Origin: Escherichia phage D2
Strand: one strand, 5' to 3'
DNA length: 49,197 bases
Sequence record: OM475427
Shown here: piece by piece, positions 1 through 49,197 of the stretch
Numbering within the stretch: the stretch's first letter is position 1
Layout of the letters: the number at the start of each line of letters is the position of its first letter
The notes under the pieces: model-generated
What the model was told of the DNA's origin: nothing
Databases searched by the model: none
The model's input: only the letters and a program-made list of their open reading frames with translations
Position numbers and translations under genes: made by a program

Positions 1-1
1 T

Positions 2-451
2 AGTAAGGGCATTGAATCTGTATTTGATACTGCCATGGCAATTCAGTGGTATGCGCAGAGGGAAACTGATATCGAAAACGAAAAGCTCCGCAAAGAACTG
101 GACGATTTGCGTGCGGCAGCGGAGTCAGATTTACAACCCGGCACCATTGACTATGAACGCTACCGGCTCACAAAAGCGCAGGCAGATGCGCAGGAACTGA
201 AAAATGCCCGTGAAGACGGAGTAGTGCTGGAAACTGAACTGTTTACCTTCATTCTGCAACGTGTGGCACAGGAGATTTCGGGGATACTTGTGCGTGTGCC
301 GTTGACATTACAGCGTAAATATCCGGACATTTCACCATCACACCTTGATGTGGTGAAAACTGAAATCGCGAAAGCCTCCAATGTTGCAGCTAAGGCCGGT
401 GAAAACGTGGGCGGGTGGATCGATGATTTCAGACGCGCAGAAGGCAGCTAA
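2..451 (+). CDS. nu1: Terminase small subunit (Nu1-like), 5'-truncated by window start
   Basis: In-frame translation from base 2 reads [30 protein letters not shown]..., homologous but not identical to lambda Nu1 from residue ~35 onward; overlaps the downstream large-subunit gene as in lambda. Confidence 0.8.
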
Positions 452-2351
452 TGCAGCCGGTGCGATAGCTACAGGGCTTTTATCTCTCATTATTCCTGTT
501 CCACTGACGACAGTTCAGTGGGCCAATAAACATTATTACCTTCCTAAAGAGTCGTCTTATACCCCGGGGCGGTGGGAAACACTGCCGTTTCAGCGGGCCA
601 TCATGAATGCGATGGGCAGCGACTACATCCGTGAGGTGAATGTGGTGAAGTCTGCCCGTGTCGGTTATTCCAAAATGCTGCTGGGTGTTTATGCCTACTT
701 TATAGAGCATAAGCAGCGCAACACCCTTATCTGGTTGCCGACGGATGGTGATGCCGAGAACTTTATGAAAACCCACGTTGAGCCGACTATTCGTGATATT
801 CCGTCGCTGCTGGCGCTGGCCCCGTGGTATGGCAAAAAGCACCGGGATAACACGCTCACCATGAAGCGTTTCACTAATGGGCGTGGCTTCTGGTGCCTGG
901 GCGGTAAAGCGGCAAAAAACTACCGTGAAAAGTCGGTGGATGTGGCGGGTTATGATGAACTTGCTGCTTTTGATGATGATATTGAACAGGAAGGCTCTCC
1001 GACGTTCCTGGGTGACAAGCGTATTGAAGGCTCGGTCTGGCCAAAGTCCATCCGTGGCTCCACGCCAAAAGTGAGAGGCACCTGTCAGATTGAGCGTGCA
1101 GCCAGTGAATCCCCGCATTTTATGCGTTTTCATGTTGCCTGCCCGCATTGCGGGGAGGAGCAGTATCTTAAATTTGGCGACAAAGAGACGCCGTTTGGCC
1201 TCAAATGGACGCCGGATGACCCCTCCAGCGTGTTTTATCTCTGCGAGCATAATGCCTGCGTCATCCATCAGTCTGAGCTTGACCAGAGTAACGGGCGGTG
1301 GATCTGTGAAAACACGGGCATGTGGACCCGTGACGGCCTGATGTTTTTCAGCGCCCGGGGTGATGAAATTCCGCCGCCGCGCTCCATCACTTTCCATATC
1401 TGGACGGCGTACAGTCCGTTCACCACCTGGGTACAGATTGTCTATGACTGGCTGGATGCACTGAAAGATCCCAACGGCCTGAAAACCTTTGTGAACACCA
1501 CGCTGGGCGAGACCTGGGAAGAGGCTGTGGGCGAAAAACTCGATCACCAGGTGCTGATGGATAAGGTTGTGCGTTACACGGCGGCGGTGCCTGCCCGGGT
1601 GGTTTATCTGACGGCGGGCATTGACTCGCAGCGAAACCGTTTTGAGATGTATGTCTGGGGATGGGCTCCGGGAGAGGAAGCCTTTCTGGTGGATAAAATC
1701 ATCATTATGGGGCGTCCCGATGAGGAAGAGACGCTGTTACGTGTGGATGCGGCGATCAACAAAAAATACCGCCATGCAGACGGAACCGAAATGACTATTT
1801 CCCGTGTCTGCTGGGACATCGGGGGGATCGATGGCGAAATCGTTTATCAGAGGTCAAAAAAACACGGTGTTTTCCGGGTGCTGCCGGTAAAAGGCGCATC
1901 TGTCTATGGCAAGCCGGTGATCACCATGCCAAAAACCCGCAATCAGCGGGGCGTGTATCTGTGTGAAGTGGGGACGGACACCGCAAAAGAAATTCTCTAT
2001 GCCCGTATGAAAGCCGATCCCACGCCTGTGGATGAAGCCACGTCGTATGCCATCCGTTTTCCTGATGATCCGGATATTTTTTCGCAGACAGAGGCGCAGC
2101 AACTGGTCGCGGAAGAGCTTGTGGAGAAGTGGGAAAAAGGAAAGATGCGTCTGCTGTGGGATAACAAAAAGCGGCGTAACGAAGCGCTGGACTGCCTGGT
2201 GTATGCCTACGCGGCATTACGTGTGTCCGTGCAACGCTGGCAGCTTGATCTGGCTGTACTGGCAAAATCCCGGGAAGAAGAGACGACCCGGCCAACCCTT
2301 AAAGAACTGGCAGCGAAGCTGTCCGGAGGAGTGAATGGTTACAGTCGCTGA
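423..2351 (+). CDS. A: Terminase large subunit gpA
   Basis: ORF 381-2351; long stretches near-identical to lambda gpA (e.g. [75 protein letters not shown]). Start at ATG 423 (MISDAQ...) is a guess; N-terminus differs from lambda. Confidence 0.9.
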
Positions 2352-2541
2352 ACTGCAGGCGCTGCGTCAGGCGCGCCTTGATTTATTAACCGGTAAACGG
2401 GTGGTGTCTGTCCAGAAAGATGGTCGCAGAATTGAATATACGGCGGCTTCTCTGGATGAGCTTAACCGGGCGATCAATGATGCGGAGTCGGTACTGGGGA
2501 CAACCCGGTGTCGCCGTCGTCCGCTGGGAGTGAGGTTATGA
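2335..2541 (+). CDS. W: Head-tail joining protein W
   Basis: 68 aa, same length as lambda W, shared motif LTGKRVVSVQKDGRRIEYTA; overlaps A and B as in lambda. Confidence 0.85.
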   Translation: MVTVAELQALRQARLDLLTGKRVVSVQKDGRRIEYTAASLDELNRAINDAESVLGTTRCRRRPLGVRL

Positions 2542-4127
2542 AACGAACGCCTGTCCTGATTGATGTGAACGGCGTTCCGCTTCGTGAGAGTCTCAGCTAC
2601 AACGGGGGCGGTGCAGGATTTGGCGGGCAAATGGCTGAGTGGTTGCCACCGGCGCAGAGTGCCGATGCGGCCCTGCTGCCCGCGTTGCGTCTGGGGAATG
2701 CCCGGGCAGATGATCTGGTGCGCAATAACGGAATAGCGGCTAATGCGGTGGCTCTGCATAAGGATCACATTGTCGGGCATATGTTTCTGATCAGCTACCG
2801 TCCGAACTGGCGCTGGCTGGGGATGCGGGAGACCGCAGCAAAAAGCTTTGTCGATGAGGTGGAGGCGGCCTGGTCGGAATACGCCGAAGGGATGTTTGGC
2901 GAGATCGACGTGGAAGGAAAACGCACGTTCACGGAATTTATCCGTGAAGGTGTGGGCGTTCATGCGTTTAACGGCGAAATCTTTGTGCAGCCGGTCTGGG
3001 ATACGGAAACCACGCAGTTATTCCGTACGCGTTTTAAAGCCGTGAGTCCGAAACGGGTGGACACGCCTGGACACGGTATGGGGAACCCTTTTCTGCGGGC
3101 CGGTGTGGAGGTCGATCGATATGGCCGTGCCGTCGCGTACCATATCTGTGAGGATGATTTTCCGTTCTCTGGTAGTGGACGATGGGAACGGATCCCGCGT
3201 GAACTTCCCACCGGGCGTCCGGCCATGTTGCATATTTTCGAGCCGGTGGAGGACGGGCAGACCCGTGGGGCTAATCAGTTTTACAGCGTCATGGAACGGC
3301 TGAAGATGCTCGATTCCCTGCAGGCAACACAGCTTCAGTCGGCCATAGTGAAGGCGATGTATGCAGCGACGATTGAAAGTGAACTTGATACCGAAAAGGC
3401 CTTTGAATATATCGCCGGCGCGCCACAGGAGCAGAAGGATAATCCGCTTATTAATATTCTGGAGAAGTTTTCCAGCTGGTATGACACGAATAACGTGACA
3501 CTGGGCGGTGTCAAAATTCCGCACCTTTTCCCTGGTGATGATCTGAAACTACAGACTGCGCAGGATTCAGACAATGGATTTTCTGCGCTTGAACAGGCGC
3601 TGCTGCGGTATATCGCCGCCGGTCTTGGCGTTTCCTACGAACAGTTGTCCCGTGATTACTCGAAGGTCAGTTACTCAAGTGCCCGCGCCTCCGCCAATGA
3701 GTCGTGGCGCTATTTTATGGGGCGGCGAAAATTTATTGCGGCCCGGCTGGCCACGCAGATGTTTTCCTGCTGGCTGGAAGAGGCACTTCTTCGGGGGATT
3801 ATTCGTCCGCCACGGGCACGTTTTGATTTTTATCAGGCGCGATCAGCCTGGTCACGGGCAGAGTGGATTGGTGCCGGAAGAATGGCCATTGACGGGCTCA
3901 AGGAAGTCCAGGAATCAGTGATGCGCATTGAAGCCGGACTGAGTACCTACGAGAAAGAGTGCGCAAAACGCGGTGACGACTATCAGGAAATTTTTGTCCA
4001 GCAGGTCCGTGAAACGATGGAGCGCCGTGCAGCCGGTCTTAAACCGCCCGCCTGGGCGGCTGCAGCATTTGAATCCGGGCTGCGACAATCAACAGAGGAG
4101 GAGAAGAGTGACAGCAGAGCTGCGTAA
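2538..4127 (+). CDS. B: Portal protein B
   Basis: MKRTPVLIDVNGVPLRESLSYNGGGAGFGGQMAEWLPP... essentially lambda gpB; start taken at the MKRTP methionine inside ORF 2508-4127. Confidence 0.9.
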   Translation: MKRTPVLIDVNGVPLRESLSYNGGGAGFGGQMAEWLPPAQSADAALLPALRLGNARADDLVRNNGIAANAVALHKDHIVGHMFLISYRPNWRWLGMRETAAKSFVDEVEAAWSEYAEGMFGEIDVEGKRTFTEFIREGVGVHAFNGEIFVQPVWDTETTQLFRTRFKAVSPKRVDTPGHGMGNPFLRAGVEVDRYGRAVAYHICEDDFPFSGSGRWERIPRELPTGRPAMLHIFEPVEDGQTRGANQFYSVMERLKMLDSLQATQLQSAIVKAMYAATIESELDTEKAFEYIAGAPQEQKDNPLINILEKFSSWYDTNNVTLGGVKIPHLFPGDDLKLQTAQDSDNGFSALEQALLRYIAAGLGVSYEQLSRDYSKVSYSSARASANESWRYFMGRRKFIAARLATQMFSCWLEEALLRGIIRPPRARFDFYQARSAWSRAEWIGAGRMAIDGLKEVQESVMRIEAGLSTYEKECAKRGDDYQEIFVQQVRETMERRAAGLKPPAWAAAAFESGLRQSTEEEKSDSRAA

Positions 4128-5625
4128 TCTCCCGCATATTGCCAGCATGGCCTTTAATGAGCCGCTGATGCTTGAACCCGCCTATGCGCGGGTTTTCTTT
4201 TGTGCGCTTGCAGGCCAGCTTGGGATCAGCAGCCTGACGGATGCGGTGTCCGGCGACAGCCTGACTGCCCAGGAGGCACTCGCGACGCTGGCATTATCCG
4301 GTGATGATGACGGACCACGACAGGCCCGCAGTTATCAGGTCATGAACGGCATCGCCGTGCTGCCGGTGTCCGGCACGCTGGTCAGCCGGACGCGGGCGCT
4401 GCAGCCGTACTCGGGGATGACCGGTTACAACGGCATTGTCGCCTGTCTTCAGCAGGCAATGGCGGATAGCCAGGTGCGGGGCGTACTGCTGGACATTGAC
4501 AGTCCGGGCGGGCAGGCCGCCGGCGCGTTTGACTGCGCTGACATGATTTACCGCCTCCGTCAGCAGAAGCCGGTCTGGGCACTGTGCAATGACACGGCCT
4601 GTTCTGCAGCCATGCTGCTGGCGTCGGCCTGCTCCCGACGGCTGGTTACCCAGACATCCCGTATCGGTTCCATTGGCGTGATGATGAGCCATGTCAGCTA
4701 TGCCGGTCATCTGGCGCAGGCCGGTGTGGATATCACGCTGATTTACTCAGGGGCGCACAAGGTGGATGGCAATCAGTTTGAAGCGTTGCCGGCAGAGGTT
4801 CGCCAGGACATGCAGCAGCGGATTGATGCGGCGCGCCGGATGTTTGCCGAAAAAGTGGCGATGTTTACCGGTCTGTCTGTTGATGCAGTCACAGGAACAG
4901 AGGCCGCTGTTTTTGAAGGTCAGTCCGGCATTGAGGCCGGGCTGGCGGATGAATTAATCAATGCGTCGGATGCCATCAGTGTGATGGCCACGGCGCTGAA
5001 CAGTAATGTCAGAGGAGGCACTATGCCGCAATTAACTGCAACGGAAGCCGCCGCGCAGGAGAACCAGCGAGTGATGGGGATCCTGACATGCCAGGAAGCG
5101 AAAGGACGTGAACAGCTTGCCACGATGCTGGCAGGACAACAGGGCATGAGCGTTGAACAGGCCCGGGCGATTCTGGCCGCGGCGGCACCGCAGCAGCCGG
5201 TGGCATCCACGCAGAGTGAAGCCGATCGCATTATGGCGTGTGAAGAAGCGAACGGTCGTGAACAACTGGCGGCAACGCTGGCGGCGATGCCGGAGATGAC
5301 GGTGGAAAAAGCCCGCCCGATCCTGGCTGCTTCACCGCAGGCGGATGCCGGACCATCACTCCGTGATCAGATCATGGCACTGGATGAGGCAAAAGGGGCT
5401 GAGGTGCAGGCTGAACAGCTGGCTGCCTGCCCGGGAATGACTGTGGAGTGCGCCCGGGCTGTGCTGGCTGCGGGATCAGGTAAGGCAGAACCGGTCTCTG
5501 CATCCACAACCGCCATGTTTGAACATTTCATGGCGAACCATTCACCGGCAGCGGTACAGGGTGGCGTGCCACAGACGTCAGCAGACGGTGATGCGGACGT
5601 GAAAATGCTCATGGCCATGCCATGA
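4108..5625 (+). CDS. C: Head protease/scaffold C (with nested Nu3-like scaffold region), C-terminal part expanded
   Basis: GTG start reading MTAELRNLPHIASMAFNEPLMLEPAYARVFF... as in lambda C (in frame with ORF 3973-5625). C-terminal region holds three diverged copies of the scaffold-like segment that lambda has once. Confidence 0.8.
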   Translation: MTAELRNLPHIASMAFNEPLMLEPAYARVFFCALAGQLGISSLTDAVSGDSLTAQEALATLALSGDDDGPRQARSYQVMNGIAVLPVSGTLVSRTRALQPYSGMTGYNGIVACLQQAMADSQVRGVLLDIDSPGGQAAGAFDCADMIYRLRQQKPVWALCNDTACSAAMLLASACSRRLVTQTSRIGSIGVMMSHVSYAGHLAQAGVDITLIYSGAHKVDGNQFEALPAEVRQDMQQRIDAARRMFAEKVAMFTGLSVDAVTGTEAAVFEGQSGIEAGLADELINASDAISVMATALNSNVRGGTMPQLTATEAAAQENQRVMGILTCQEAKGREQLATMLAGQQGMSVEQARAILAAAAPQQPVASTQSEADRIMACEEANGREQLAATLAAMPEMTVEKARPILAASPQADAGPSLRDQIMALDEAKGAEVQAEQLAACPGMTVECARAVLAAGSGKAEPVSASTTAMFEHFMANHSPAAVQGGVPQTSADGDADVKMLMAMP

Positions 5626-5661
5626 AGCCAGTGCTGACCATCAATAGGAGGTTTTAACAAT

Positions 5662-6009
5662 ATGGTGACGAAAACCATCACTGAACAGCGTGCGGAAGTA
5701 CGTATTTTTGCCGGTAATGATCCGGCTCATACCGCCACAGGCAGCAGCGGGATTTCTTCTGCAACACCGGCTCTGACGCCCCTGATGCTGGATGAAGCCA
5801 CCGGGAAACTGGTGGTCTGGGACGGACAGAAAGCCGGTAGTGCGGTTGGCATACTGGTACTGCCGCTTGAAGGCACAGAGACGGCGCTGACGTATTACAA
5901 GTCGGGAACCTTTGCGACGGAGGCAATCCACTGGCCTGAAAGTGTGGATGAACACAAAAAGGCCAACGCCTTTGCTGGCAGTGCCCTGAGTCACGCGGCG
6001 CTGCCGTAA
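5662..6009 (+). CDS. D: Head decoration protein D
   Basis: 115 aa, lambda D-like (NDPAHTATG..TPLMLD..KLVVWDG..AVGIL..YKSGTF..AFAG), correct position between C and E. Confidence 0.85.
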   Translation: MVTKTITEQRAEVRIFAGNDPAHTATGSSGISSATPALTPLMLDEATGKLVVWDGQKAGSAVGILVLPLEGTETALTYYKSGTFATEAIHWPESVDEHKKANAFAGSALSHAALP

Positions 6010-6066
6010 CACGTTATCAGGCCACCGCGCTGGCCTGACTGATTTCTGAATGAAAGGAACTGATTT

Positions 6067-7095
6067 ATGGGATTGTTTACGACCCGCCAGTTACTCGGTT
6101 ATACCGAACAAAAAGTTAAATTTCGTGCGCTGTTTCTGGAACTGTTTTTCCGCCGTACGGTGAATTTCCATACCGAAGAGGTGATGCTGGACAAAATTAC
6201 CGGAAAAACGCCGGTGGCGGCCTATGTCTCCCCGGTTGTTGAAGGAAAAGTGCTGCGTCATCGTGGTGGTGAAACCCGCGTGTTGCGTCCGGGCTACGTC
6301 AAGCCGAAACACGAATTTAATTACCAGCAGGCGGTTGAGCGCCTTCCTGGGGAAGATCCATCTCAACTGAATGATCCGGCTTACCGCCGTCTGCGTATCA
6401 TTACCGATAACCTCAAACAGGAAGAGCACGCGATTGTCCAGGTGGAAGAAATGCAGGCGGTAAATGCTGTGTTGTATGGCAAATACACCATGGAAGGAGA
6501 CCAGTTCGAGAAAATTGAGGTCGATTTTGGCAGGTCGACGAAGAATAACATCACTCAGGGTAGTGGTAAGGAGTGGTCAAAACAGGATCGTGACACGTTC
6601 GATCCTACACATGATATTGACCTCTACTGCGACCAGGCCAGCGGTCTTGTGAATATTGCCATTATGGACGGTACCGTCTGGCGTCTTCTGAATGGTTTTA
6701 AGCTGTTCCGCGAAAAACTGGATACCCGTCGCGGTTCAAATTCTCAACTCGAAACGGCAGTGAAAGATCTGGGCGCAGTGGTGTCCTTCAAGGGGTATTA
6801 CGGCGATCTGGCCATTGTGGTGGCGAAAATGTCTTATATAGCAGAAGACGGTATCGAAAAACGTTATCTTCCAGATGGCATGCTGGTTCTGGGGAATACT
6901 GCTGCAGATGGGATCCGTTGTTACGGTGCCATTCAGGATGCTCAGGCGTTGTCCGAAGGTGTGGTGGCCTCTTCCCGTTATCCGAAACACTGGCTGACGG
7001 TAGGGGATCCCGCCCGTGAATTTACCATGACGCAGTCCGCGCCGCTGATGGTGTTGCCGGACCCGGATGAGTTTGTGGTGGTACAGGTGAAATAA
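6067..7095 (+). CDS. E: Major capsid protein E
   Basis: 342 aa; length, position and sequence match lambda gpE. Confidence 0.9.
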   Translation: MGLFTTRQLLGYTEQKVKFRALFLELFFRRTVNFHTEEVMLDKITGKTPVAAYVSPVVEGKVLRHRGGETRVLRPGYVKPKHEFNYQQAVERLPGEDPSQLNDPAYRRLRIITDNLKQEEHAIVQVEEMQAVNAVLYGKYTMEGDQFEKIEVDFGRSTKNNITQGSGKEWSKQDRDTFDPTHDIDLYCDQASGLVNIAIMDGTVWRLLNGFKLFREKLDTRRGSNSQLETAVKDLGAVVSFKGYYGDLAIVVAKMSYIAEDGIEKRYLPDGMLVLGNTAADGIRCYGAIQDAQALSEGVVASSRYPKHWLTVGDPAREFTMTQSAPLMVLPDPDEFVVVQVK

Positions 7096-7103
7096 TCCGT
7101 GAG

Positions 7104-7132
7104 CGGGGGCGAAATGCCCCCGTGTCTTTTTT
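7104..7132 (+). terminator. Rho-independent terminator/attenuator after major capsid gene
   Basis: GC stem CGGGGGC/GCCCCCG with GAAAT loop followed by a T-run, 9 nt after the E stop codon. Confidence 0.5.
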
Positions 7133-7146
7133 CACAGGGGGCTGAT

Positions 7147-7521
7147 ATGGCAACGAAAGAGCAAAATCTGAAACGGCTTGATGAACTGGCCCTGATTCTG
7201 GGGCGTGAGCCGGATATATCCGGGAGTGCCGCAGAGATAGCGCAGCGGGTGGCAGAATGGGAAGAGGAAATGCAGTCATCCGGCGATGATGTACAGGTTA
7301 TGAATATGGATATCCGGGAGCGGGAAACCGCGGCTCATGATGTTCGTGAGGAAACATCCGGCGCGTTAACGCGCATCAGAGTTCTGACCTGCCTCCATCT
7401 CTGTGGCGTTGATGGTGAAACGGGGGAATCCGTTGAGCTTGCGGATGTTGGTCGGGTGATTCTGATTATGTCCTCAGATGCAAAAACACACGTTGACAAT
7501 AACGGGAGGCGCTGTGGCTGA
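7147..7521 (+). CDS. FI: DNA packaging/head completion protein FI-like
   Basis: ORF between E and FII; acidic protein in the FI position. Sequence diverges from lambda FI; start chosen at MATKEQNLKRL. Confidence 0.6.
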   Translation: MATKEQNLKRLDELALILGREPDISGSAAEIAQRVAEWEEEMQSSGDDVQVMNMDIRERETAAHDVREETSGALTRIRVLTCLHLCGVDGETGESVELADVGRVILIMSSDAKTHVDNNGRRCG

Positions 7522-7867
7522 TTTCGATAACCTGTTCGATGCTGCCATTGCCCGCGCCGATGAAACGATACGCGGGTACATGGGAACGTCAGCCACCATT
7601 ACATCCGGTGAGCAGTCAGGTGCGGTGATACGTGGTGTTTTTGATGACCCTGAAAATATCAGCTATGCCGGACAGGGCGTGCGCGTTGAAGGCTCCAGCC
7701 CGTCCCTGTTTGTCCGGACTGATGAGGTGCGGCAGCTGCGGCGTGGAGACACGCTGACCATCGGTGAGGAAAATTTCTGGGTAGATCGGGTTTCGCCGGA
7801 TGATGGCGGAAGTTGTCATCTCTGGCTTGGACGGGGCGTACCGCCTGCCGTTAACCGTCGCCGCTGA
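7514..7867 (+). CDS. FII: Head-tail connector FII
   Basis: GTG start; ADFDNLFDAAIARADETIRGYMGTSATITSGEQ... matches lambda FII over its full 117 aa. Confidence 0.85.
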   Translation: MADFDNLFDAAIARADETIRGYMGTSATITSGEQSGAVIRGVFDDPENISYAGQGVRVEGSSPSLFVRTDEVRQLRRGDTLTIGEENFWVDRVSPDDGGSCHLWLGRGVPPAVNRRR

Positions 7868-7878
7868 AAGGGGGATGT

Positions 7879-8457: not shown

Positions 8458-8849
8458 AACATACTGAACTCCGTGCAGCCGTACTGGATGCACTGGAGAA
8501 GCATGACACCGGGGCGACGTTTTTTGATGGTCGCCCCGCTGTTTTTGATGAGGCGGATTTTCCGGCAGTTGCCGTTTATCTCACCGGCGCTGAATACACG
8601 GGCGAAGAGCTGGACAGCGATACCTGGCAGGCGGAGCTGCATATCGAAGTTTTCCTGCCTGCTCAGGTGCCGGATTCAGAGCTGGATGCGTGGATGGAGT
8701 CCCGGATTTATCCGGTGATGAGCGATATCCCGGCACTGTCAGATTTGATCACCAGTATGGTGGCCAGCGGCTATGACTACCGGCGCGACGATGATGCGGG
8801 CTTGTGGAGTTCAGCCGATCTGACTTATGTCATTACCTATGAAATGTGA
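8454..8849 (+). CDS. U: Tail terminator protein U
   Basis: 131 aa, same length and position as lambda U; 4-nt overlap with Z. Confidence 0.85.
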
Positions 8850-41319: not shown

Positions 41320-41643
41320 GTAATAATCACTTTTTCAACCGTGCTATGGTATGAAAGTAAAGTAACTAATATGATATTAACTATCTTGAACGAAGCGCCC
41401 TGAGCTATAGTTTTACTATAGGCACTGTCACTGGATGTTGGCATTCTTGCTCTAGTAGCTCAACAATACCCAATCACAAAACAATTCACTGATAACAAAC
41501 TTTGTGCACGTGCTTGGTTATGGCGAACAGGTGATGTTAACCTCTTGCCAGAATGCCACTCCACTTCATTAAGTATCTGAGCACCGAGAGGCTGGTCACG
41601 CCCCCATTAAAAATAATTTCTTTTGAATCGAGTGAAATAGGTT

Positions 41644-41670
41644 AGCCCGCATAAGTGCGGGCTGCTTTTT
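41644..41670 (+). terminator. Rho-independent terminator between convergent ybcK and esterase genes
   Basis: Hairpin AGCCCGC-ATAAGT-GCGGGCT followed by GCTTTTT. Confidence 0.45.
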
Positions 41671-42712
41671 ACAGGTCAGCGTTTGTTTTTTGTTGTTGGG
41701 TAGCGGTTTTTATGGGGGTTCCCAGGTTTTTAGTAAACCACTCAACAACTCTGTTTATAATAATTGGCTGATACCATGTATTATCGCCATGCTCGGCCCC
41801 TTCTACCAGCACGTACTCAGCGTTATCACCGTTCTTCTTCAACATCCTGAATAGTTTGGCGCTTTGCTCAGGTGAAACCAGAGTGTCTTTGCTACCATGC
41901 ATAATAAGAAATGGGGGTTTTACTCCTTTCATATGTCCGATTGGACTGGCGTTTAGCGCTTTTTCTTTTGACGCTGTGATGGGGGCTCCCGCAAAATTTC
42001 TGAATGCAGGGCCATTGATCATTAAGGCTTCGGTTACGGCAGGAGAGCGATGAACCTCCTGCACTGATTCAGGGAACCCCTCGCCAATATTCAACAAGTC
42101 AGAAATCCCATAAAGTGTGGCAACTGCCTGAACATCTGAGGATTGCTGAAGAAAGTCACCTTTATCAAAGGTTTTGTCACCATTTGTAGTTCCCATCATC
42201 TGGGCAAGCCATCCACCGGCAGAGTCACCCAGAACTCCGATTCTTTGAGGATCAATCCCATAATTGCTGGCATGCTCTCTCAGGTAACGTATTGCAGCTT
42301 TTCCATCCTCAACTGGTGCTGGAAATGTATCAGGAATTGTTCTGTATTCTACAGCGGCCACAACAAAACCAGCTTCTGCCAGAGCCATTCTCATTTCAAT
42401 AAATTTGTCATGTTCAGAAGACATGAATCCGCCGCCGGGATAATAAATAATGGCTGGTTTTAAATCATTTGTTCGCGGGACAAGAACTGACATGTGAAGC
42501 TGTCTGACAGAACGAGTTCCTTTTATCTGGGAATAAACAACATCACCAATGAGATCGACCTGGTTTCTGGTCGGTGAAACACTAATGATATCTGCACCCG
42601 GGGTGTAACCAGGAAGATTAGTCTGGACAGGTGTTGCACAACTCCCGACCGACATGGCCATTGACATACCATACAATAGTGTTGCAGATGATAATATCTT
42701 GTTAATTTTCAT
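41669..42712 (-). CDS. Secreted alpha/beta-hydrolase (esterase/lipase-like), probable lipoprotein
   Basis: Signal peptide with lipobox-like SVGSC; HGG-type oxyanion motif (YYPGGGF); nucleophile elbow GDSAGG; C-terminal HG (GAEHGD). Confidence 0.7.
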   Translation of the reverse strand: MKINKILSSATLLYGMSMAMSVGSCATPVQTNLPGYTPGADIISVSPTRNQVDLIGDVVYSQIKGTRSVRQLHMSVLVPRTNDLKPAIIYYPGGGFMSSEHDKFIEMRMALAEAGFVVAAVEYRTIPDTFPAPVEDGKAAIRYLREHASNYGIDPQRIGVLGDSAGGWLAQMMGTTNGDKTFDKGDFLQQSSDVQAVATLYGISDLLNIGEGFPESVQEVHRSPAVTEALMINGPAFRNFAGAPITASKEKALNASPIGHMKGVKPPFLIMHGSKDTLVSPEQSAKLFRMLKKNGDNAEYVLVEGAEHGDNTWYQPIIINRVVEWFTKNLGTPIKTATQQQKTNADL

Positions 42713-43159
42713 GTTTTACATGCCTTGACTTATCGGATGAAATTCTCTTACTGAATTTAACGGCAGTTTAATAGCCGTACAACTCGTGGTAGCCAGGGAA
42801 ATATCCCAGTCGTGGTTAAGGTTGTACTTGACGGCTATTATTTCAACAATGCTTAAAGTGAGAGCTTAAGGTTATGCGTATGTTTTACAGTCCGAGTAGA
42901 TTCTGACCAATAGCTTCTTTGTATAATTCTGTCAGAAATAAATCTTGGCTTGCATGAAGTTTGAGACCTTATCTTGTTTGATTATGAATAATCAATTCGC
43001 CATAATTGTATCACCGGAGCCTGAACAACTCCGGTGACTTCTGCGCTAAACGGGGACGTTTATGCGCACACACAATCCAAACTCTCTTCTCCCTTCACAG
43101 ATGCAGAAATGCACCTGCGTTTTTTTGCATCCAGCGTCTGACCTCTGTGGAGGTGAAGC

Positions 43160-43615
43160 GTGAACCTACCACAAGATGGCATCAAACTGCATCGCGGTAA
43201 CTTCATCGCTATCGGCCAGCAGATCCAGCCTTATCTGGAGGACGGAAAATGCTTTCGCATGGTGCTTAAACCGTGGCGTGAGAAACGCAGTCTTTCCCAG
43301 AATGCACTCAGCCATATGTGGTACAGCGAAATCAGTGAATACCTCATCAGCAGGGGGAAATCGTTCGCTACCGCAGCATGGGTAAAAGATGCTCTCAAAC
43401 ACACATACCTCGGTTATGAAACCAAGGACCTGGTTGATGTCGTAACCGGCGAAATCACTACTATCCAGTCGTTACGCCATACCTCCGATCTTGATACCGG
43501 AGAGATGTATGTCTTCCTGTGTAAGGTTGAAGCCTGGGCGATGAATATTGGCTGCCACCTGACTATTCCGCAGAGCTGCGAGTTCCAGCTGCTGCGCGAC
43601 AAGCAGGAGGCGTAA
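43160..43615 (+). CDS. ybcN: YbcN / NinB-family protein
   Basis: 151 aa, GTG start with GGAGGTG RBS; DLP12 ybcN-like; shares the S-L-S-Q-N motif seen in NinB/Orf-family proteins. Confidence 0.7.
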
Positions 43616-43785
43616 TGGCTACACCGCTTATTCGTGTCATGAACGGACACATCTACAAAGTACCAAATCGTCGTAAGCGTAAACCTGAGCTGAAGCCATC
43701 CGAAATACCAACACTGCTCGGGTATACCGCCAGCCTGGTTGATAAAAAATGGTTGCGACTGGCAGCAAGGAGGAATCATGGCTGA
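43615..43785 (+). CDS. ninE: NinE
   Basis: 56-aa [59 protein letters not shown], overlapping the ybcN stop (TAATG). Confidence 0.7.
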   Translation: MATPLIRVMNGHIYKVPNRRKRKPELKPSEIPTLLGYTASLVDKKWLRLAARRNHG

Positions 43786-44068
43786 TTTGAGAAAAGCAGC
43801 GCGTGGTCGGGAATGCCAGGTAAGAATCCCTGGCGTATGTAATGGCAATCCTGAAACGTCAGTACTGGCACATATCCGGCTGGCTGGATTGTGCTGTACC
43901 GGTATCAAACCGCCAGACCTGATTGCCACCATTGCATGTTCTGCCTGCCACGACGAAATCGACCGTCGCACGCATTTTGTTGACGCTGGATATGCAAAAG
44001 AATGCGCGCTGGAAGGTATGGCGAGAACACAGGTTATCTGGCTGAAAGAGGGGGTAATTAAGGCGTGA
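43778..44068 (+). CDS. ybcO: YbcO-like protein (DUF1364, putative nuclease)
   Basis: 96 aa from ATG preceded by AGGAGG; cysteine-rich ([20 protein letters not shown]). Confidence 0.7.
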
Positions 44069-44427
44069 ATACTTACCACATCACACTACCCTGGCCGCCG
44101 AGCAATAATCGCTATTACCGCCATAATCGCGGACGCACGCATATCAGCGCAGAGGGGCAGGCATACCGCGATAATGTCGCCCGAATCATTAAAAACGCAA
44201 TGCTGGATATCGGCCTGGCTATTCCTGTGAAAATCAGCATTGAGTGCCACATGCCGGATCGCCGTCGCCGTGACCTTGATAATCTGCAAAAGGCCGCTTT
44301 TGACGCACTCACCAAAGCAGGTTTCTGGCTGGATGATGCTCAGGTCGTTGATTACCGCGTTGTGAAGATGCCCGTTACCAAAGGTGGGAAGCTGGAGCTG
44401 ACTATCACTGAACTGGGAGATGAATGA
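44065..44427 (+). CDS. rusA: Holliday junction resolvase RusA
   Basis: 120 aa, [38 protein letters not shown]... matches RusA. Confidence 0.9.
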
Positions 44428-44564
44428 TGTTTGAGTCTTATATGGCAGAGCGTCTTCGCCGCCGCTGGGTGCGCCTGCGCTTATATCGTTTTCCTGGTTC
44501 TGTTTTGACCGATTACCGAATACTGAAGAATTACGCCAAAACCCTGACAGGAGCAGGAGTATGA
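44424..44564 (+). CDS. ylcG: YlcG-like small protein
   Basis: 46-aa [49 protein letters not shown] overlapping the rusA stop. Confidence 0.5.
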
Positions 44565-44649
44565 AGTCAGAGATAACAATCAACTAATACTGTTTTGTTG
44601 ATTTTTGCTTGTAATTGGCGTTCTGGTCTGATTTTTGTGGAGTAAGTTG

Positions 44650-45033
44650 ATGCGTGATATTCAGATGGTTCTTGAGCGTTGGGGAGCGTGGGCGGCTAAT
44701 AATCATGAAGATGTGACCTGGTCGTCCGTTGCCGCCGGTTTTAAGGGATTAATTCCTTCAAAAGTAAAATCTCGCCCGCAATGTTGTGACGATGACGCGA
44801 TGATCATTTGCGGGTGCATGGCCCGTCTGAAAAAGAACAACAGCGATTTACACGATTTATTAGTAGATTATTATGTATGTGGTATGACATTCATGTCACT
44901 GGCAAGTAAGCATTGCTGCTCGGATGGTTATATCGGGAAAAGGTTACAGAAGGCTGAGGGCATAATTGAAGGGATGTTAATGGCATTAGATATCCGGTTA
45001 GATATGGATATCGTTGCTAATAATTCTAATTGA
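44650..45033 (+). CDS. quuD: Late gene antiterminator Q (QuuD / Q21-82 type)
   Basis: [39 protein letters not shown]...; cysteine-rich zinc-binding region ([12 protein letters not shown]); followed by a terminator about 140 nt downstream. Confidence 0.8.
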
Positions 45034-45059
45034 TATGCAATTGTTTACTAAAAGTTATT

Positions 45060-45083
45060 AAAAATGGGGCGTGGAAACGCCCC
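45060..45083 (-). terminator. Possible minus-strand terminator downstream of nmpC
   Basis: On the minus strand, GGGGCGUUUCCACGCCCC followed by AUUUUUAAUAACUUUU. Confidence 0.3.
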
Positions 45084-45170
45084 CAAAATAAAGGGTAATA
45101 TATAACAGAAGGTTTATATAGTAAGAAGCAAGGTAGTGCTTCTAAAGGAAGTGGCTTGAGGGCTCCACTT

Positions 45171-45210
45171 ATATGTTGCGGAGGCAAAGCCTCCCGCAAC
45201 ATATCTTTTT
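45171..45210 (+). terminator. tR'-like rho-independent terminator downstream of Q (end of a 6S-like late leader)
   Basis: 15-bp stem ATATGTTGCGGAGGC/GCCTCC(C)GCAACATAT with AAA loop, followed by CTTTTTCG. Confidence 0.5.
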
Positions 45211-45221
45211 CGTAAGTCAGA

Positions 45222-46304
45222 TTAGAACTGATAAACCAGACCTACAGCGACGATGTCGTCGGTATCAATACCAGCTGTTTTGGTAAACTTACTATCGTCA
45301 ATTAAGTTGATTTTGTAATCAACAAAAGTGGACATGTTTTTATTAAAGTAGTAAGTAGCACCGACATCGACATACTTGACTAAGTCTCGGTCACCATGAA
45401 CACCAAGGTCTTTACCTTTTGACTGAAGGTAAGCAACAGATGGTCGCAGACCGAAGTCAAACTGATATTGTGCTACTGCTTCAAAGTTTTGTGCTTTGTT
45501 TGCAATATGGTTATTACCAAAAACGGTCATATTCTGAGTTTCAGAATATGTGGTAGCCAGATAGATATTGTTCGCATCATATTTCAGGCCTGCAGCCCAT
45601 ACTTCCGCATTTTTGCCGGAGGCATTGAATTTGCTCTTACCATAGGCGACCTGACCGTCAGTGCGATCTGATTTAGCATAGGTTGCACCCACGCCGAATC
45701 CTTCATACTCATAAGTAGTGGAGAAACCGAAACCATCACCATTGACTTCAGTTACGTCAGTGCGGTCATTTTTACCCTGATACTGAGCAGCAAAGTTCAG
45801 GCCATCGACCAGACCAAAGAAGTCGTTGTTACGATAAGTTGCAACACCAGTAGTGCGACCAGTCATGAACACATCTGTTTGGGTCCAGGTATCACCACCG
45901 AATTCTGGCAGGACGTCAGTCCACGCACCGATGTCGTATGCTACACCGTAGTTACGGCCGTAATCGATTGAGCCGTAATCACCAAATTTCAGGCCTGCAA
46001 ATGCAAGACGGGTTTTGTCTTTGGAAGAACCTTGAGATTCAGCACGGTTGCCTTTGAATTCATATTCCCACTGACCGAAACCAGTCAGTTGATCGTTGAT
46101 TTGGGTTTCACCTTTGAAGCCAAGACGGGCATAAGTAGTATCACCATCATCTGCATCATTAGAGGAGAAGTAGTGCTTGGCATTAACTTTCCCGTATAGA
46201 TCCAGCTTGTTACTGTCTTTATTATAAATTTCAGCTGCCTGAGCAGACATCGCCATCAGTACTGATGCAGCTACAGCAGAAATTGCCACTGTTAATTTTT
46301 TCAT
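45222..46304 (-). CDS. nmpC: Outer membrane general porin (NmpC/OmpD/OmpC family), apparently intact
   Basis: 360 aa; signal peptide ending AQA; mature N-terminus AEIYNKD..KLDLYGK; C-terminal VGLVYQF with terminal Phe. Confidence 0.85.
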
Positions 46305-46893
46305 TGTACGCCCTTTTTTTTGAACTATTATTAAAAAATGATGTCACTGCGCGATAAATATTCATCTAATCAATGCGATTATTTCAAGATGTAAGTTTTA
46401 GTTTCTCATTTAATTTGTGAAGTAGATCTCTATTTTTATCTGAACCTTTTCTATCTAATCCTATTCATGGCTCTTGTTTGAACGAAAATAAATCTATTAG
46501 CTAATTTATATTAATGGCACTTATTTATAAGCGCTCTATAATTCTTTAGCTTAATTTAAACAAACTAAAAATAACATCGGAAATTATTCATTGGTTATTT
46601 GTTGAAGTTTTCTTATGTATTTGTGGTGGTGTTTTGAACACTCGGTGGCATTCTCACAAATATCATTTAGTAGTTTACGTACGTAAAAAATTGGTTATGC
46701 TGTTAAGAGTGGTTACTTCGTCACACAGCTTAAACCCGCCGTCGAGCGGGTTTTTCCATTTTTTGAGTCTCGATATTAGCTGATAACCCAATACCTGAGT
46801 TATTCACTGACTCCGAATCTGTTACGTTTCTGCCTTTATTGCGATACGTAGTATCCCCTTAATTTACACCCGCTTTGTCTGCGAGGTGGGGTT

Positions 46894-47109
46894 ATGAAAT
46901 CCATGGATAAGTTAACAACGGGTGTCGCCTATGGCACCTCAGCAGGTAGTGCCGGGTACTGGTTTTTACAGTTGCTCGATAAAGTCACTCCGTCACAGTG
47001 GGCTGCAATCGGTGTGCTGGGTAGCCTGGTTTTTGGCCTGCTGACGTATCTGACAAATCTTTATTTCAAGATTAAAGAAGACAGGCGTAAGGCTGCGAGA
47101 GGAGAGTAA
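46894..47109 (+). CDS. essD: Pinholin (S21-type class II holin) with dual-start motif
   Basis: 71 aa, [26 protein letters not shown]..., two TMDs; Met1-Lys-Ser-Met4 dual start as in phage 21 S21. Confidence 0.85.
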
Positions 47110-47113
47110 TCCA

Positions 47114-47606
47114 ATGACTCAAGACTATGAACTGGTTGTGAAAGGAGTCCGGTGGGGCTGTTGCCATAGCGTCTGTGCTCATCACTGGTCCGAGTGGTGA
47201 CGATGGCCTGGAAGGTGTCAGCTACATACCATACAAAGATATCGTTGGCGTATGGACTGTATGTCACGGACACACCGGAAAAGACATCATGCTCGGTAAA
47301 ACGTATACCGAAGCAGAATGCAAAGCCCTCCTGAATAAAGACCTTGCCACTGTCGCCAGACAAATTAACCCGTACATCAAAGTCGATATACCGGAAACAA
47401 CGCGCGGCGCTCTTTGCAGCAGATTAAGGAGCGTGGCGCTTTANCNNNNNNTNNATCGTGGTGATATCCGTCAGGCAATCGACCGTTGCAGCAATATCTG
47501 GGCTTCACTGCCGGGCGCTGGTTATGGTCAGTTCGAGCATAAGGCTGACAGCCTGATTGCAAAATTCAAAGAAGCGGGCGGAACGGTCAGAGAGATTGAT
47601 GTATGA
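47114..47606 (+). pseudogene. R: Endolysin, chimeric: P21-type lysozyme 5' part joined out of frame to lambda R transglycosylase 3' part
   Basis: Frame 0 (47175-~47405) encodes SAR-lysozyme-like [79 protein letters not shown]. From ~47411 another frame reads [10 protein letters not shown]; after an n run, [49 protein letters not shown] (lambda R C-terminus). The 5' ATG at 47114 is in yet another frame. Confidence 0.6.
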
Positions 47607-48046
47607 GCAGAGTCACCGCGATTATCTCCGCTCTGGTTATCTGCATCATCGTCTGCCTGTCATGGGCTGTTAATCATTACCGTGATAACGCCATTACCTA
47701 CAAAGCCCAGCGCGACAAAAATGCCAGAGAACTGAAGCTGGCGAACGCGGCAATTACTGACATGCAGATGCGTCAGCGTGATGTTGCTGCGCTCGATGCA
47801 AAATACACGAAGGAGTTAGCTGATGCTAAAGCTGAAAATGATGCTCTGCGTGANNNNNTTNCCGCTGGTCGTCGTCGGTTGCACATCAAAGCAGTCACCG
47901 CCGCCTCCGGCGTGGATGATGGTGCCAGCCCCAGACTTACTGACACCGCTCAACGGGATTATTTCGTTCTCAGAGAGCGCATCGAAACCGTAACTAACCA
48001 ATTGAATGGTCTGCAAGAGTATGTGAGATCACAGTGTTCATATTAG
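47603..48046 (+). CDS. Rz: Spanin inner-membrane subunit Rz (i-spanin)
   Basis: [83 protein letters not shown]... matches lambda Rz; n run at 47845-47852. Confidence 0.85.
47823..47993 (+). CDS. Rz1: Spanin outer-membrane lipoprotein Rz1 (o-spanin), embedded in Rz in the +1 frame
   Basis: Embedded [13 protein letters not shown]...[43 protein letters not shown]: lipobox (VVGC) and proline-rich mature region. Confidence 0.7.
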
Positions 48047-48084
48047 AAAAGTCTTATCATAAGATTTTTGTATATGGATGCATT

Positions 48085-48459
48085 ATGTCTCAATACGCTC
48101 AAGCCGCTTTAAATGCTTATCAATTGGTTGCTCATAACTCAATGTCTCCTCGTGATGCATGGGAGGCTGCTGTCGCTGAGGTTACAGAAAGCGAATCGGC
48201 AAGAAAGAAGGGATGCCCAAGGGCAACGTTTCTCGCTCTGGCGGATAGCGGTTATCTGAAGAATGTAAAACAACATCATGGGGAGAAAAAGATCGGTAAG
48301 TTGTACCAAAGGGCAATTGAAGTTGCGAATCTGATTCTTGATTTACCCGGAATTAGCAAAGCTGAGCTAGTTGATAAAACTTGCTATAAAGACAGGCAAG
48401 GGTCTTATGACATTGCTCTAACTCTCGCTCAGCACGGATTACTCCAGCGTCCTCAATAA
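48085..48459 (+). CDS. Hypothetical protein (124 aa) between Rz and cos
   Basis: ORF starting MSQYAQAALNAYQLVAHNSMSPRDAWEAAVAEV...; no family recognised. Confidence 0.35.
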   Translation: MSQYAQAALNAYQLVAHNSMSPRDAWEAAVAEVTESESARKKGCPRATFLALADSGYLKNVKQHHGEKKIGKLYQRAIEVANLILDLPGISKAELVDKTCYKDRQGSYDIALTLAQHGLLQRPQ

Positions 48460-48557
48460 GATATTAAGTGATTTATGGCCTCGCTTTTAGCGGGGCTTTT
48501 TCATATCTGAATCTCACCATGCATATCATCACCTGACTGGAACGTCAGGAGAATTCG

Positions 48558-48794
48558 TTACCGGGATTCGATAAAGGTATTCAAGCCTGACACATTATGC
48601 GCTGTATCGTCGCCGTATTCCTGCATTAACCATGACCGTAGCCCGACGGGGAATTCCTTCTGCGCGAGTGTGCGGGCGTATTCAGTGNNNNGATTTGTAT
48701 TGTCTGAAGTTGTTTTTACGTTAAGTTGATGCAGATCAATTAATACGATACCTGCGTCATAATTGATTATTTGACGTGGTTTGATGGCCTCCAC
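48558..48794 (-). CDS. Hypothetical protein (78 aa, contains ambiguous bases)
   Basis: Minus-strand ORF between Rz and cos; n positions inside; no family recognised. Confidence 0.2.
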   Translation of the reverse strand: MEAIKPRQIINYDAGIVLIDLHQLNVKTTSDNTNXXTEYARTLAQKEFPVGLRSWLMQEYGDDTAHNVSGLNTFIESR

Positions 48795-48864
48795 GCACGT
48801 TGTGATATGTAGATGATAATCATTATCACTTTACGGGTCCTTTCCGGTGATCCGACAGGTTACG

Positions 48865-48876
48865 GGGCGGCGACCT
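48865..48876 (+). other. cos: cosN cohesive-end site (lambda type), with flanking cosQ/cosB
   Basis: ...GATCCGACAGGTTACG|GGGCGGCGACCT|CGCGGGTTTTCGCTATTTATGAAAATTTTCCGGTTTAAGGCGTTTCCG... matches the lambda right-end/left-end junction with the 12-nt cohesive sequence GGGCGGCGACCT. Confidence 0.85.
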
Positions 48877-49053
48877 CGCGGGTTTTCGCTATTTATGAAA
48901 ATTTTCCGGTTTAAGGCGTTTCCGTTCTTCTTCGTCATAACTTAATGTTTTTATTTAAAATACCCTCTGAAAAGAAAGGAAACGACAGGTGCTGAAAGCG
49001 AGCTTTTTGGCCTCTGTCGTTTCCTTTCTCTGTTTTTGTCCGTGGAATGAACA

Positions 49054-49197
49054 ATGGAAGTCAACAAAAAGCAGCTGGCTGACATTTTCGGTGCGAGTAT
49101 CCGTACCATTCAGAACTGGCAGGAACAGGGAATGCCCGTTCTGCGAGGCGGTGGCAAGGGTAATGAGGTGCTTTATGACTCTGCCGCCGTCATAAAA
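49054..49197 (+). CDS. nu1: Terminase small subunit Nu1 (lambda type), 3'-truncated by window end
   Basis: MEVNKKQLADIFGASIRTIQNWQEQGMPVLRGGGKGNEVLYDSAAVIK matches the lambda Nu1 N-terminus, about 190 bp downstream of cosN. Confidence 0.9.
   Translation, partial: MEVNKKQLADIFGASIRTIQNWQEQGMPVLRGGGKGNEVLYDSAAVIK

Follow-up and report, generated by a model that had tools for sequence, protein, structure and literature searches.

The closest described relative of the sequence analysed here is Escherichia phage 4A7 (LR595864.1 / NC_049946.1; Bievrevirus bv4A7), with the near-identical records Lambda_4C10, 1W and 3W. Its annotated gene order is Nu1-A...J-stf, IS66-type element, sitABCD, icd' fragment, int-xis-exo-bet-gam, immunity, O-P-ren, nin/Q, porin, lysis, cos. 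Natural icd prophages of the 4A7/21 type, e.g. that of E. coli ST131 (NZ_OX637961.1), share the integration module, icd followed by int and xis, and are present as a single copy in att-to-att order with one continuous 21-type Nu1 (549-nt CDS). The ST131 prophage is 99.7-99.9% identical to 4A7, to which it aligns in two directly adjoining pieces without a break at the point where the end of the 4A7 record joins its start. The second relative is phage lambda (NC_001416.1), represented also by the same laboratory's lambda in the deposits 4W (OM475432.1) and E26-Berryhill (OM475435.1). Finally, there are the classical lambda/21 hybrids, which our sequence resembles at first sight in that its cos and the N-terminus of Nu1 are those of lambda, while most of the terminase is 21-type.

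The window, that is, the whole stretch of 49,197 nt analysed here, is the GenBank record of Escherichia phage D2 from start to end. Its chimeric terminase, portal and side tail fibre are exactly the phage D2 proteins ULG00721.1, ULG00723.1 and ULG00741.1, the last of which forms a singleton cluster. We believe, with a probability of roughly 0.88, that the window is a reference-guided consensus chimera with the 4A7 record as scaffold and does not correspond to any contiguous natural DNA molecule. There is no biological novelty in its sequence.

Composition of the window

The window is collinear with 4A7 (LR595864.1, 49,168 nt) from base 1 to approximately 48.96 kb. Base 1 is the same in both, and the offsets do not exceed 24 nt across 49 kb. 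This collinearity with the 4A7 annotation bears out the lambda virion gene order described in the initial annotation. The window starts and stops in Nu1 and has the virion order because the 4A7 record was linearised within the terminase small-subunit gene; since the window is itself the record of a phage genome rather than a piece of chromosome, its vegetative order requires no special explanation.

A greedy exact-match parse assigned 59.5% of the window to 4A7, 38.4% to lambda and 2.1% to other (blended or host) sequence. The portions base-for-base identical to 4A7 (about 60%) include the IS66-type element, sitABCD, the icd'/int module, the immunity region and the DLP12-like nin/Q/porin/lysis region. 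Compared with 4A7, nine blocks (38%) are lambda instead, 130 nt of the phage att arm are replaced by icd proper, and the 21-type cos and Nu1 5' end are replaced by those of lambda. In total, 18.9 kb are 99.6-100% identical to lambda, Ns aside, and cover FII to J, lom/stf, ea22 to cIII, ori-O-P-ren-ninB', R'-Rz' and cos-Nu1'. The lambda head genes (except for two short patches), b region, att/int, immunity region and nin-Q-S are missing. The ST131 prophage aligns to the window in nine pieces, broken at places where lambda sequence spills over, and none of the natural icd prophages has these junctions. The patchwork demonstrated in this way consists of the following parts.

1..593, plus strand: 4A7-type, 21-type Nu1 from codon 33 (2-451) and start of the terminase large subunit; exactly 4A7 1-593
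594..1266, plus strand: lambda patch within the terminase large-subunit gene, in register; 100% lambda 882-1554; edges with 6 and 4 nt common to both parents
1267..3931, plus strand: 4A7-type, 3' part of the terminase large subunit, W, portal; exactly 4A7 1267-3931
3932..4437, plus strand: lambda patch, portal/protease genes; lambda 4242-4747, 1 mismatch in 506 nt; edges with 2 and 3 nt common to both parents
4438..7496, plus strand: 4A7-type head genes (protease/scaffold, D, E, FI); exactly 4A7 4438-7496
7497..18554, plus strand: lambda patch, FII to J; lambda 7595-18651, 99.98%; spills 242 and 214 nt past the 4A7/lambda homology block 7739-18340
18555..18673, plus strand: 119-nt 4A7-type island between two lambda patches, 1 mismatch to 4A7; bounds marked by Ns at 18554 and 18673
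18674..19396, plus strand: lambda patch, lom 3' end and 5' part of stf (orf-401); 100% lambda 19462-20184; creates the chimeric side tail fibre; edges with 1 and 0 nt common to the parents
19397..30374, no strand assigned: 4A7-type b region and att/int, from the stf 3' part to xis, with blended or foreign stretches 22883-23440 and 28364-28684; contains the next five features
~20875-23290: IS66-family element
22883..23440, plus strand: blended 3' end of this element; parsed into 12-46-nt fragments, with no match in 4A7, lambda or any single E. coli genome (best of 5,426: 92.5%)
24120-27569, minus strand: sitDCBA
28364..28493, plus strand: 130 nt from the bacterial icd gene itself; identical to K-12 icd, and displayed in a three-way alignment
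28754-29896, minus strand: int; the region also holds the icd' fragment/attP and xis
30375..33546, minus strand: lambda patch, ea22, exo, bet, gam, kil, cIII; lambda 30221-33394; spills 197 and 199 nt past homology block 30596-33371, junctions with 0 nt in common
31170-31226: 57-nt 4A7-type island inside the preceding patch
33547..37454, no strand assigned: 4A7-type immunity region and O 5' part; 100% 4A7
37455..39291, plus strand: lambda patch, ori iterons, O 3' part, P, ren, ninB 5' end; 100% lambda 38900-40736; junctions with 1 and 0 nt common to both parents
39292..47415, no strand assigned: 4A7-type (DLP12-like) region, emrE 3' part, ybcK, hydrolase, ybcN, ninE, ybcO, rusA, Q, porin, holin, endolysin 5' part; small foreign SNP clusters at 44042-44086 and 46989-47150
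47416..47896, plus strand: lambda patch, R 3' part and Rz 5' part; lambda 45780-46259
47897..48676, plus strand: 4A7-type, Rz 3' part and downstream ORFs; exactly 4A7 47917-48696 (in blastn the same block is 47896-48676, 100%, 781 nt)
48677..49197, plus strand: lambda right end, cos (48864/48865) and Nu1 codons 1-48; lambda 48314-48502, then 1-334

In bins 1-7500, up to and including bin 7251-7500, all sites are 4A7 or lambda, and the number of window-unique sites is zero.

Junctions and ambiguous positions

The properties of the junctions were determined directly. The two parents agree over only 0-6 nt at each of the 15. Five 4A7/lambda homology blocks are longer than 300 nt with an identity of 78% or higher; all of them are lambda-type in the window, as is the cos block (97 nt at 78%), and both flanks of every lambda block consist of lambda-specific DNA. 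Patch edges that fall outside homology lie 171-242 nt beyond it, in non-homologous DNA. The spill-overs often exchange equal lengths (197 for 197, 181 for 181, 187 for 187).

The deposited 4A7 genome (LR595864.1, genus Bievrevirus) very probably served as a scaffold that was overwritten by laboratory phage lambda sequence wherever the similarity sufficed for alignment. The overwriting lambda sequence continues about 170-240 nt into non-homologous DNA. Small amounts of sequence from the E. coli chromosome and from cryptic prophages overwrote the scaffold likewise, and elsewhere the 4A7 sequence was left as it was. We infer the software route, the reference used and the make-up of the sample, essentially lambda and host DNA: most likely, Illumina reads were mapped in Geneious to the 4A7 reference, positions without coverage were filled from this reference, and ambiguity codes were afterwards converted to N.

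The window contains 58 Ns (0.12%), which stand singly or in runs no longer than 6. Those at 24038-24106 sit exactly on lambda/4A7 differences in a short stretch common to both phages, and 30 of the 58 are no more than 50 nt away from a patch edge. As had been suggested, the Ns are a sign of a chimera. The accompanying proposal of a chimeric or collapsed assembly of two prophages holds in its first half: the window is a chimera, but not of two loci joined once, since at least nine lambda-identical patches, together with small host-derived ones, sit on the 4A7 coordinate frame.

Collapse during de novo assembly, with co-resident lambdoid prophages or phages merged by an assembler that switches at shared repeats, is consistent with the plain mixture of two parental sequences and with Ns at sites where the parents differ. 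However, graph assemblers switch paths only in shared k-mers, and the identity at the junctions does not exceed 6 nt, most of them lying 171-242 nt outside any homology. Further, a de novo assembly would not have kept the start base, length and coordinates of the 4A7 record. Neither do the equal-length replacements of unrelated sequence, nor the reference-length sibling deposits with their wrap-around overhangs, agree with such a collapse, and we regard it as improbable.

Broken genes and window ends

Several genes are observed to be broken at the patch edges. O is frameshifted at the left junction of the lambda patch 37455-39291; this junction (37454/37455) is spanned by none of 50,697 phage records. 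At the right junction of the same patch, the N-terminus of emrE is exchanged for that of ninB. J is truncated at the right junction of the patch 7497-18554, and its C-terminus is garbled. R is a fusion of two unrelated lysozymes/endolysins with in-frame stops near the start. All four genes are intact in 4A7. The in-register swaps in the head genes all leave the reading frames open.

These open frames would also be expected if D2 were a genuine hybrid formed by multiple recombination between lambda and a 4A7-type prophage, e.g. by Red-mediated relaxed homologous recombination, in which case the deposit would be a more or less true description of the phage. Lambdoid phages are mosaic, the laboratory concerned worked with lambda as well as with lysogens of 4A7-type phages, and lambda/21 hybrids that cross over within the terminase genes are reportedly classical laboratory constructs of the Feiss laboratory. 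However, at least 15 crossovers would be needed, none of them within shared identity of more than 6 nt. As every lambda block is flanked by lambda-specific DNA, the donor molecules had lambda context and were not hybrid. Because O is frameshifted, J lacks the receptor-binding end and the endolysin fuses two different folds with early in-frame stops, such a hybrid would be unable to replicate, adsorb or lyse. Finally, its ends fail to close into a Nu1 gene. This explanation seems slightly less probable still than assembly collapse.

The right end carries the first 48 codons of lambda Nu1 (49054-49197): the lambda-type ATG is at 49054, and the window stops right behind codon 48 (...GKGNEVLYDSAAVIK). 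The left end (2-451) encodes phage-21-type Nu1 from residue 33 onward. Translation of both ends supports the earlier observation of homologous but divergent Nu1 sequences; the overlap, given there as 34 and 39 nt, is real but somewhat longer, about 46 nt (16 codons, residues 33-48). The best local alignment of the two ends covers 42 positions, of which about half are identical. If the window is closed into a circle, the joint reads ...VIK-TAG-TAA, and because of these stop codons the two ends are not parts of one gene, whereas the same join in the 4A7 record creates an intact 183-codon ORF, the full Nu1. The window differs from the classical lambda/21 hybrids in the same region: its Nu1 parts are in no common reading frame, overlap by 16 codons and meet at stops, and the swap points lie outside shared identity.

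In the reference-guided chimera, the lambda cos/Nu1 patch at the right end (236 nt in place of 190 nt of 4A7) passes the scaffold end by about 46 nt, so that codons 33-48 are duplicated in divergent form; we ascribe the end-to-end Nu1 overlap to this overshoot. The mismatched ends are an assembly artefact, with no biology behind them.

The icd piece 28364-28493 replaces an AT-rich phage arm of 4A7 of equal length. In the ST131 chromosome the sequence is contiguous from 28364 on, and icd adjoins attL only in the chromosome of a lysogen. On the left, the window returns to the 4A7 phage arm after 130 nt only, and the junction 28363/28364 is spanned by none of 5,426 complete E. coli genomes. The suggestion of two related lambdoid prophages in tandem at icd, with the window reaching from the middle of one to the middle of the next, would account for the vegetative order, the two Nu1 alleles at the ends and the genuine icd ahead of the att core, but can be dismissed almost entirely, as the window is an entire phage deposit with the 4A7 start base and no surrounding chromosome, the icd piece gives way to the phage arm at a junction seen in none of these 5,426 genomes, the int-proximal junction of a tandem pair would be a hybrid att (attP-like) and not icd 5' sequence, natural lysogens have a single 4A7-type prophage there with icd-int...tail order and one continuous Nu1, and the other 14 abrupt junctions would be left unexplained.

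Foreign sequence and the source of reads

The SNP clusters in icd'/int, ybcO-rusA and holin-R match none of 4A7, lambda and K-12. Together with seven Ns in sitD (24560-24687), these non-parental clusters show that something other than lambda contributed and that the sample held additional related sequence, e.g. a host prophage. A part of the 4A7-type sequence may therefore be truly covered by reads.

The probable source paper is Berryhill et al. 2023, where Illumina NextSeq data were "analyzed using Geneious Prime"; the D2 record is probably linked to it by adjacent protein accessions and by the name of the sibling E26-Berryhill, while no stated accession connecting the two turned up. A point against the proposed route is that the spill-overs of up to 242 nt are longer than one 151-nt NextSeq read; iterative mapping or paired or longer reads would be needed.

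The sibling deposits follow their references closely. Siblings 1W and 3W are identical to 4A7 at 99.996% or more, and 4W and E26-Berryhill to lambda at approximately 99.99%. In 1W, 4W and E26-Berryhill, 61-178 nt around a reference-length core wrap to the opposite end of that reference. Two indels set the lambda patches of the window apart from NC_001416, and both recur in 4W and E26-Berryhill: one nucleotide is deleted at lambda 139 and one is inserted after 14266. The patches therefore stem from actual sequencing reads of the lambda used in that laboratory. Across cos, the window is 100% identical to E26-Berryhill and 4W, the deletion at lambda 139 included.

Composition of the record

The sequence deposited as Escherichia phage D2 is collinear, from its first nucleotide, with the genome of Escherichia phage 4A7 (LR595864.1), a member of the genus Bievrevirus. 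Window positions 1-20000 align with 4A7 1-20000, positions 20001-45000 with 4A7 20001-45020, and the remainder with 4A7 up to 48975. Base 1 of the window is base 1 of 4A7, the coordinate offset never exceeds 24 nt, and the lengths are 49,197 nt (window) and 49,168 nt (4A7), a difference of +29 nt. The 4A7 annotation runs from a partial Nu1 through A...J, stf, three IS66-type ORFs, sitDCBA, a 153-nt icd fragment, int and xis to exo-bet-gam, the immunity region, O-P-ren, emrE/ybcK/nin/rusA/Q, the porin, S-R-Rz and cos. This agrees with the initial annotation, which had described the lambda virion gene order across the window. The window is an entire deposited phage record and no piece of a chromosome, and so the virion order requires no additional explanation.

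Exact look-up of three chimeric products returned D2 proteins.

Chimeric proteins and their exact matches
423-2348, terminase large subunit: ULG00721.1 of Escherichia phage D2
2538-4124, portal: ULG00723.1 of Escherichia phage D2
18862-20790, side tail fibre (Stf): ULG00741.1 of Escherichia phage D2

The D2 protein accessions directly precede those of Escherichia phage 1W (ULG00792.1 onward, OM475428.1), and the same series includes 3W, 4W and E26-Berryhill. The records of these four siblings are labelled "partial genome", with "Eschericia coli lysogens" (spelled as in the records), USA, as the source.

Compared with 4A7, the window splits into blocks at 95-100% identity. Between them lie unalignable stretches of 120-240 nt, nearly equal in length to the 4A7 DNA that they replace. 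Both the unalignable stretches and the blocks at 95-96% consist of phage lambda sequence (NC_001416).

Lambda-type ranges of the window (each 99.6-100% identical to lambda, Ns excluded)
7497-18605
18674-19396
30375-33546
37454-39291
47414-47977
48677-49197

By a greedy exact-match parse, 4A7 accounts for 59.5% of the window and lambda for 38.4%, which leaves 2.1% belonging to neither parent. The 4A7 part includes long uninterrupted stretches at 100% identity, such as ones of 3,908 nt and 4,750 nt; the 60% of the window identical to 4A7 may be reference showing through, however, and is uninformative on the real D2 phage. In a three-way alignment, bins 1-7500 contain no window-unique sites, all sites matching either 4A7 or lambda, which rules out ordinary divergence or a natural mosaic as the explanation of the 95-96% identity in the left arm. 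Inversion or scrambling of the 120-240-nt gaps is likewise ruled out, as reverse-complement identity is no better than forward identity and the gaps are lambda or icd. A 57-nt island identical to 4A7 was observed at 31170-31226 within a long lambda patch, in the orf61/orf63 region where the parents are locally divergent; a short drop-out of reads, at which the consensus took over the reference, would fit this pattern.

Junctions between the parents and broken genes

At the 15 junctions the two parents share only 0-6 nt of identity, which is chance level. Superposition of the homology map and the patch map shows that all five 4A7/lambda homology blocks (at least 78% identity, longer than 300 nt) are lambda-type in the window, and so is the 97-nt homology block at cos. 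Ten of the 15 junctions are found 171-242 nt beyond the nearest homology block, in DNA that has no counterpart in the other parent. The lambda blocks thus keep lambda-specific neighbours on both sides and then end abruptly.

Several genes are broken. A frameshift disrupts O at 37454, J is cut off at 18554 and lacks its C-terminal end, and in emrE ninB codons take the place of the first 29. The endolysin gene R combines a 4A7-type lysozyme with the lambda transglycosylase, an unrelated enzyme, and has stops close to its start. Independent recovery of the junctions was checked at three places: the O junction, the att junction and the IS66 3' end. The O junction is spanned by none of 50,697 phage records, and the junction at 28363/28364 by none of 5,426 complete E. 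coli genomes; among the same genomes, the best match to the IS66 3' end is 92.5%.

We conclude, with a probability of about 0.88, that the sequence is an artefact of reference-guided consensus calling, in which reads of one genome were called onto the reference of another. The initial annotation had offered a chimeric or collapsed assembly of two prophages as one of its two explanations. A chimera it is; the mechanism is a reference-guided consensus rather than an assembly of two prophages.

A lambdoid hybrid of lambda and a 21/4A7-type phage produced by homologous recombination was considered and rejected. The parental switches fall outside shared tracts, with 0-6 nt in common; the junctions were not recovered in independent sequences at the three places checked; and a viable phage would have to live with a frameshifted O, a truncated J, an R fusion with stops and two unjoined halves of Nu1. 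It is very improbable that the D2 sample held a multi-crossover hybrid of lambda and a 4A7-type phage whose true junctions lie within the homology blocks, the record being a distorted image of it. Such a phage might have lambda cos and the DNA-binding end of lambda Nu1 on a mostly 21-type terminase, and might also have the lambda tail, Red and replication modules. If real, it would exemplify Red-type exchange on a large scale, with an infecting lambda and a wild resident prophage as partners.

Traces of probable read mapping in D2 and its siblings

Consensus calling onto 4A7 accounts for the retention of the start point, length and coordinates of the reference, for donor sequence only at alignable places with a bounded spill-over (lambda sequence running past the homology), the rest being reference, and for ambiguity calls where read pile-ups are mixed or poorly aligned. 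Of the 58 Ns in the window, which occur singly or in runs of up to 6, 30 are no more than 50 nt from a patch edge. In a short tfa-like stretch common to lambda and 4A7 (24038-24106), Ns stand exactly at each difference between the two. This placement fits ambiguity calls in pile-ups whose read ends were mixed or badly aligned.

The sibling deposits are built in the same way. 1W and 3W are 4A7 at an identity of at least 99.996%; for 4W and E26-Berryhill the match is lambda, at about 99.99%. In 1W, 4W and E26, 61-178 nt flanking a core of reference length wrap to the other end of the reference. The lambda patches of the window have two indels relative to NC_001416 in common with 4W and E26: a 1-nt deletion at lambda 139 (window 49002/49003) and one additional nucleotide after lambda 14266 (14266/14267; window 14169). 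The match to 4W and E26 continues unbroken across cos. Therefore the source of the lambda sequence is actual reads of lambda from that laboratory rather than a database entry, and these indels rule out simple copying of the GenBank lambda reference. Both look akin to corrections already known for the original lambda reference. Since the spill-overs exceed the length of one 151-nt read, an iterative mapping or similar step is implied.

We infer that the D2 record probably originates from Berryhill et al. (PNAS 2023, PMC10089163). That study used temperate lambda and wild lysogens from M.-A. Petit, with Illumina NextSeq 2000 sequencing "analyzed using Geneious Prime".

The 1W record contains 39 Ns. 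Its last ~365 nt (49298-49662), after the wrap-around overhang, are annotated as a partial hypothetical protein, and megablast against 4A7 gave no hit of 60 nt or more for them. This record may also hold a foreign read overhang.

Record ends, the icd piece and further sources

At the right end, lambda Nu1 starts at 49054 and the window stops exactly after its codon 48. The left end carries a phage-21-type Nu1 beginning at residue 33. The ends overlap by 16 homologous, divergent codons, about 46 nt, and the homologous but divergent Nu1 segments reported by the initial annotation are thus confirmed. Lambda DNA of 236 nt, comprising cos (48864/48865) and Nu1 codons 1-48, takes the place of the final 190 nt of the 4A7 frame, and the patch extends about 46 nt past the end of the scaffold. 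What looked like "two alleles of Nu1" is an overhang of lambda reads at the right end of a 4A7-framed consensus. The last 98 nt of 4A7 joined to its first 451 nt give an intact Nu1 of 183 codons; the end of the window joined to its start reads ...VIK-stop-stop, and the Nu1 halves have no continuous frame. The end-to-start join of 4A7 is unbroken in a natural ST131 lysogen, where 4A7 28501-49168 abuts 4A7 1-14310 at locus 35310/35311, with 99.7-99.9% identity.

The gene order in ST131 strain 86 is rluE, icd, int, xis...Q, porin, lysis genes, a complete 549-nt small-terminase gene, and head and tail genes, that is, one prophage in att-to-att order. It therefore gives no support to two lambdoid prophages in tandem at icd, the other explanation proposed initially. 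The latter is refuted, as the window is a full phage record in which both ends are phage Nu1, with no bacterial chromosome flank, and no attP-like hybrid site between copies was found, icd proper being set directly against the 4A7 phage arm.

4A7 integrates into icd, and its own icd 3' fragment adjoins int. Upstream of this fragment the window contains 130 nt of icd proper (28364-28493), identical to E. coli K-12 icd, in place of the AT-rich arm of 4A7. Only in a lysogen chromosome do icd proper and the fragment run together without a break. The match to ST131 begins exactly at 28364; to the left, the sequence reverts to the 4A7 phage arm. The icd piece is a spill-over patch from chromosomal reads, and not the attL of a prophage within the window.

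A few segments come from neither parent. The icd piece, the blended IS66 3' end and the small SNP clusters make up the 2.1% that the parse left over.

Segments unlike 4A7 and lambda (the four SNP clusters also match neither e14 nor DLP12 of K-12)
22883-23440, blended IS66 3' end
28551-28684, SNP cluster in icd'
29225-29279, SNP cluster
44042-44086, SNP cluster in ybcO-rusA
46989-47150, SNP cluster in holin-R, introducing stops near the start of the endolysin gene

K-12 as the sole third donor is ruled out, as neither K-12 nor DLP12 sequence accounts for the icd' SNPs, the clusters at 44042-44086 and 46989-47150 or the IS66 3' end. The Ns in sitD and the unmatched SNP clusters point to further related sequence in the sample, probably a host prophage. 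Part of the 4A7-type sequence may thus have had read support; this leaves the conclusion unchanged that the sequence as written corresponds to no real molecule.

The way in which the record was constructed accounts for the mismatched Nu1 ends, the icd piece and the mosaic, none of which is a biological novelty; the value of the observation is in data hygiene, the flagging of a chimeric public record. For the most part, the D2 record seems to consist of the 4A7 reference, overwritten in places by lambda, and neither its taxonomy nor its apparent cargo (sitABCD, the IS66 element, emrE) is a reliable guide to the phage sequenced. Chimeric D2 proteins are already in protein databases: in a collection of 15 billion proteins, Stf (ULG00741.1) forms a cluster by itself, as representative and only member, illustrating how spurious protein families arise. 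Such records can seed false calls of "novel mosaics" or "recombination hotspots" in comparative phage genomics, and are a useful negative control for a genome-scan pipeline.

The O/ori segment of MW057783.1, 'Campylobacter phage CJLB-4' (48,361 nt), is 100% lambda and annotated as lambda O; the record looks like lambda under another name, by contamination or mislabelling.

In 4A7, an independent deposit, an IS66-family element and the sitABCD manganese/iron transporter lie between stf and att (4A7 20875-27584, window 20875-27569). Sit genes are also listed at the same place in the related records ev017, ev207 and 1H12. This looks like genuine cargo of the 4A7 phage group, and its presence in "D2" may be just the reference showing through. 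The nin-to-lysis region of 4A7 (window 39205-47100) has the gene set and order of the K-12 cryptic prophage DLP12, with emrE, ybcK, ybcN, ninE, ybcO, rusA, ylcG, quuD, an nmpC-like porin, essD, rrrD and rzpD common to both; intact relatives of DLP12 are thus still active phages.
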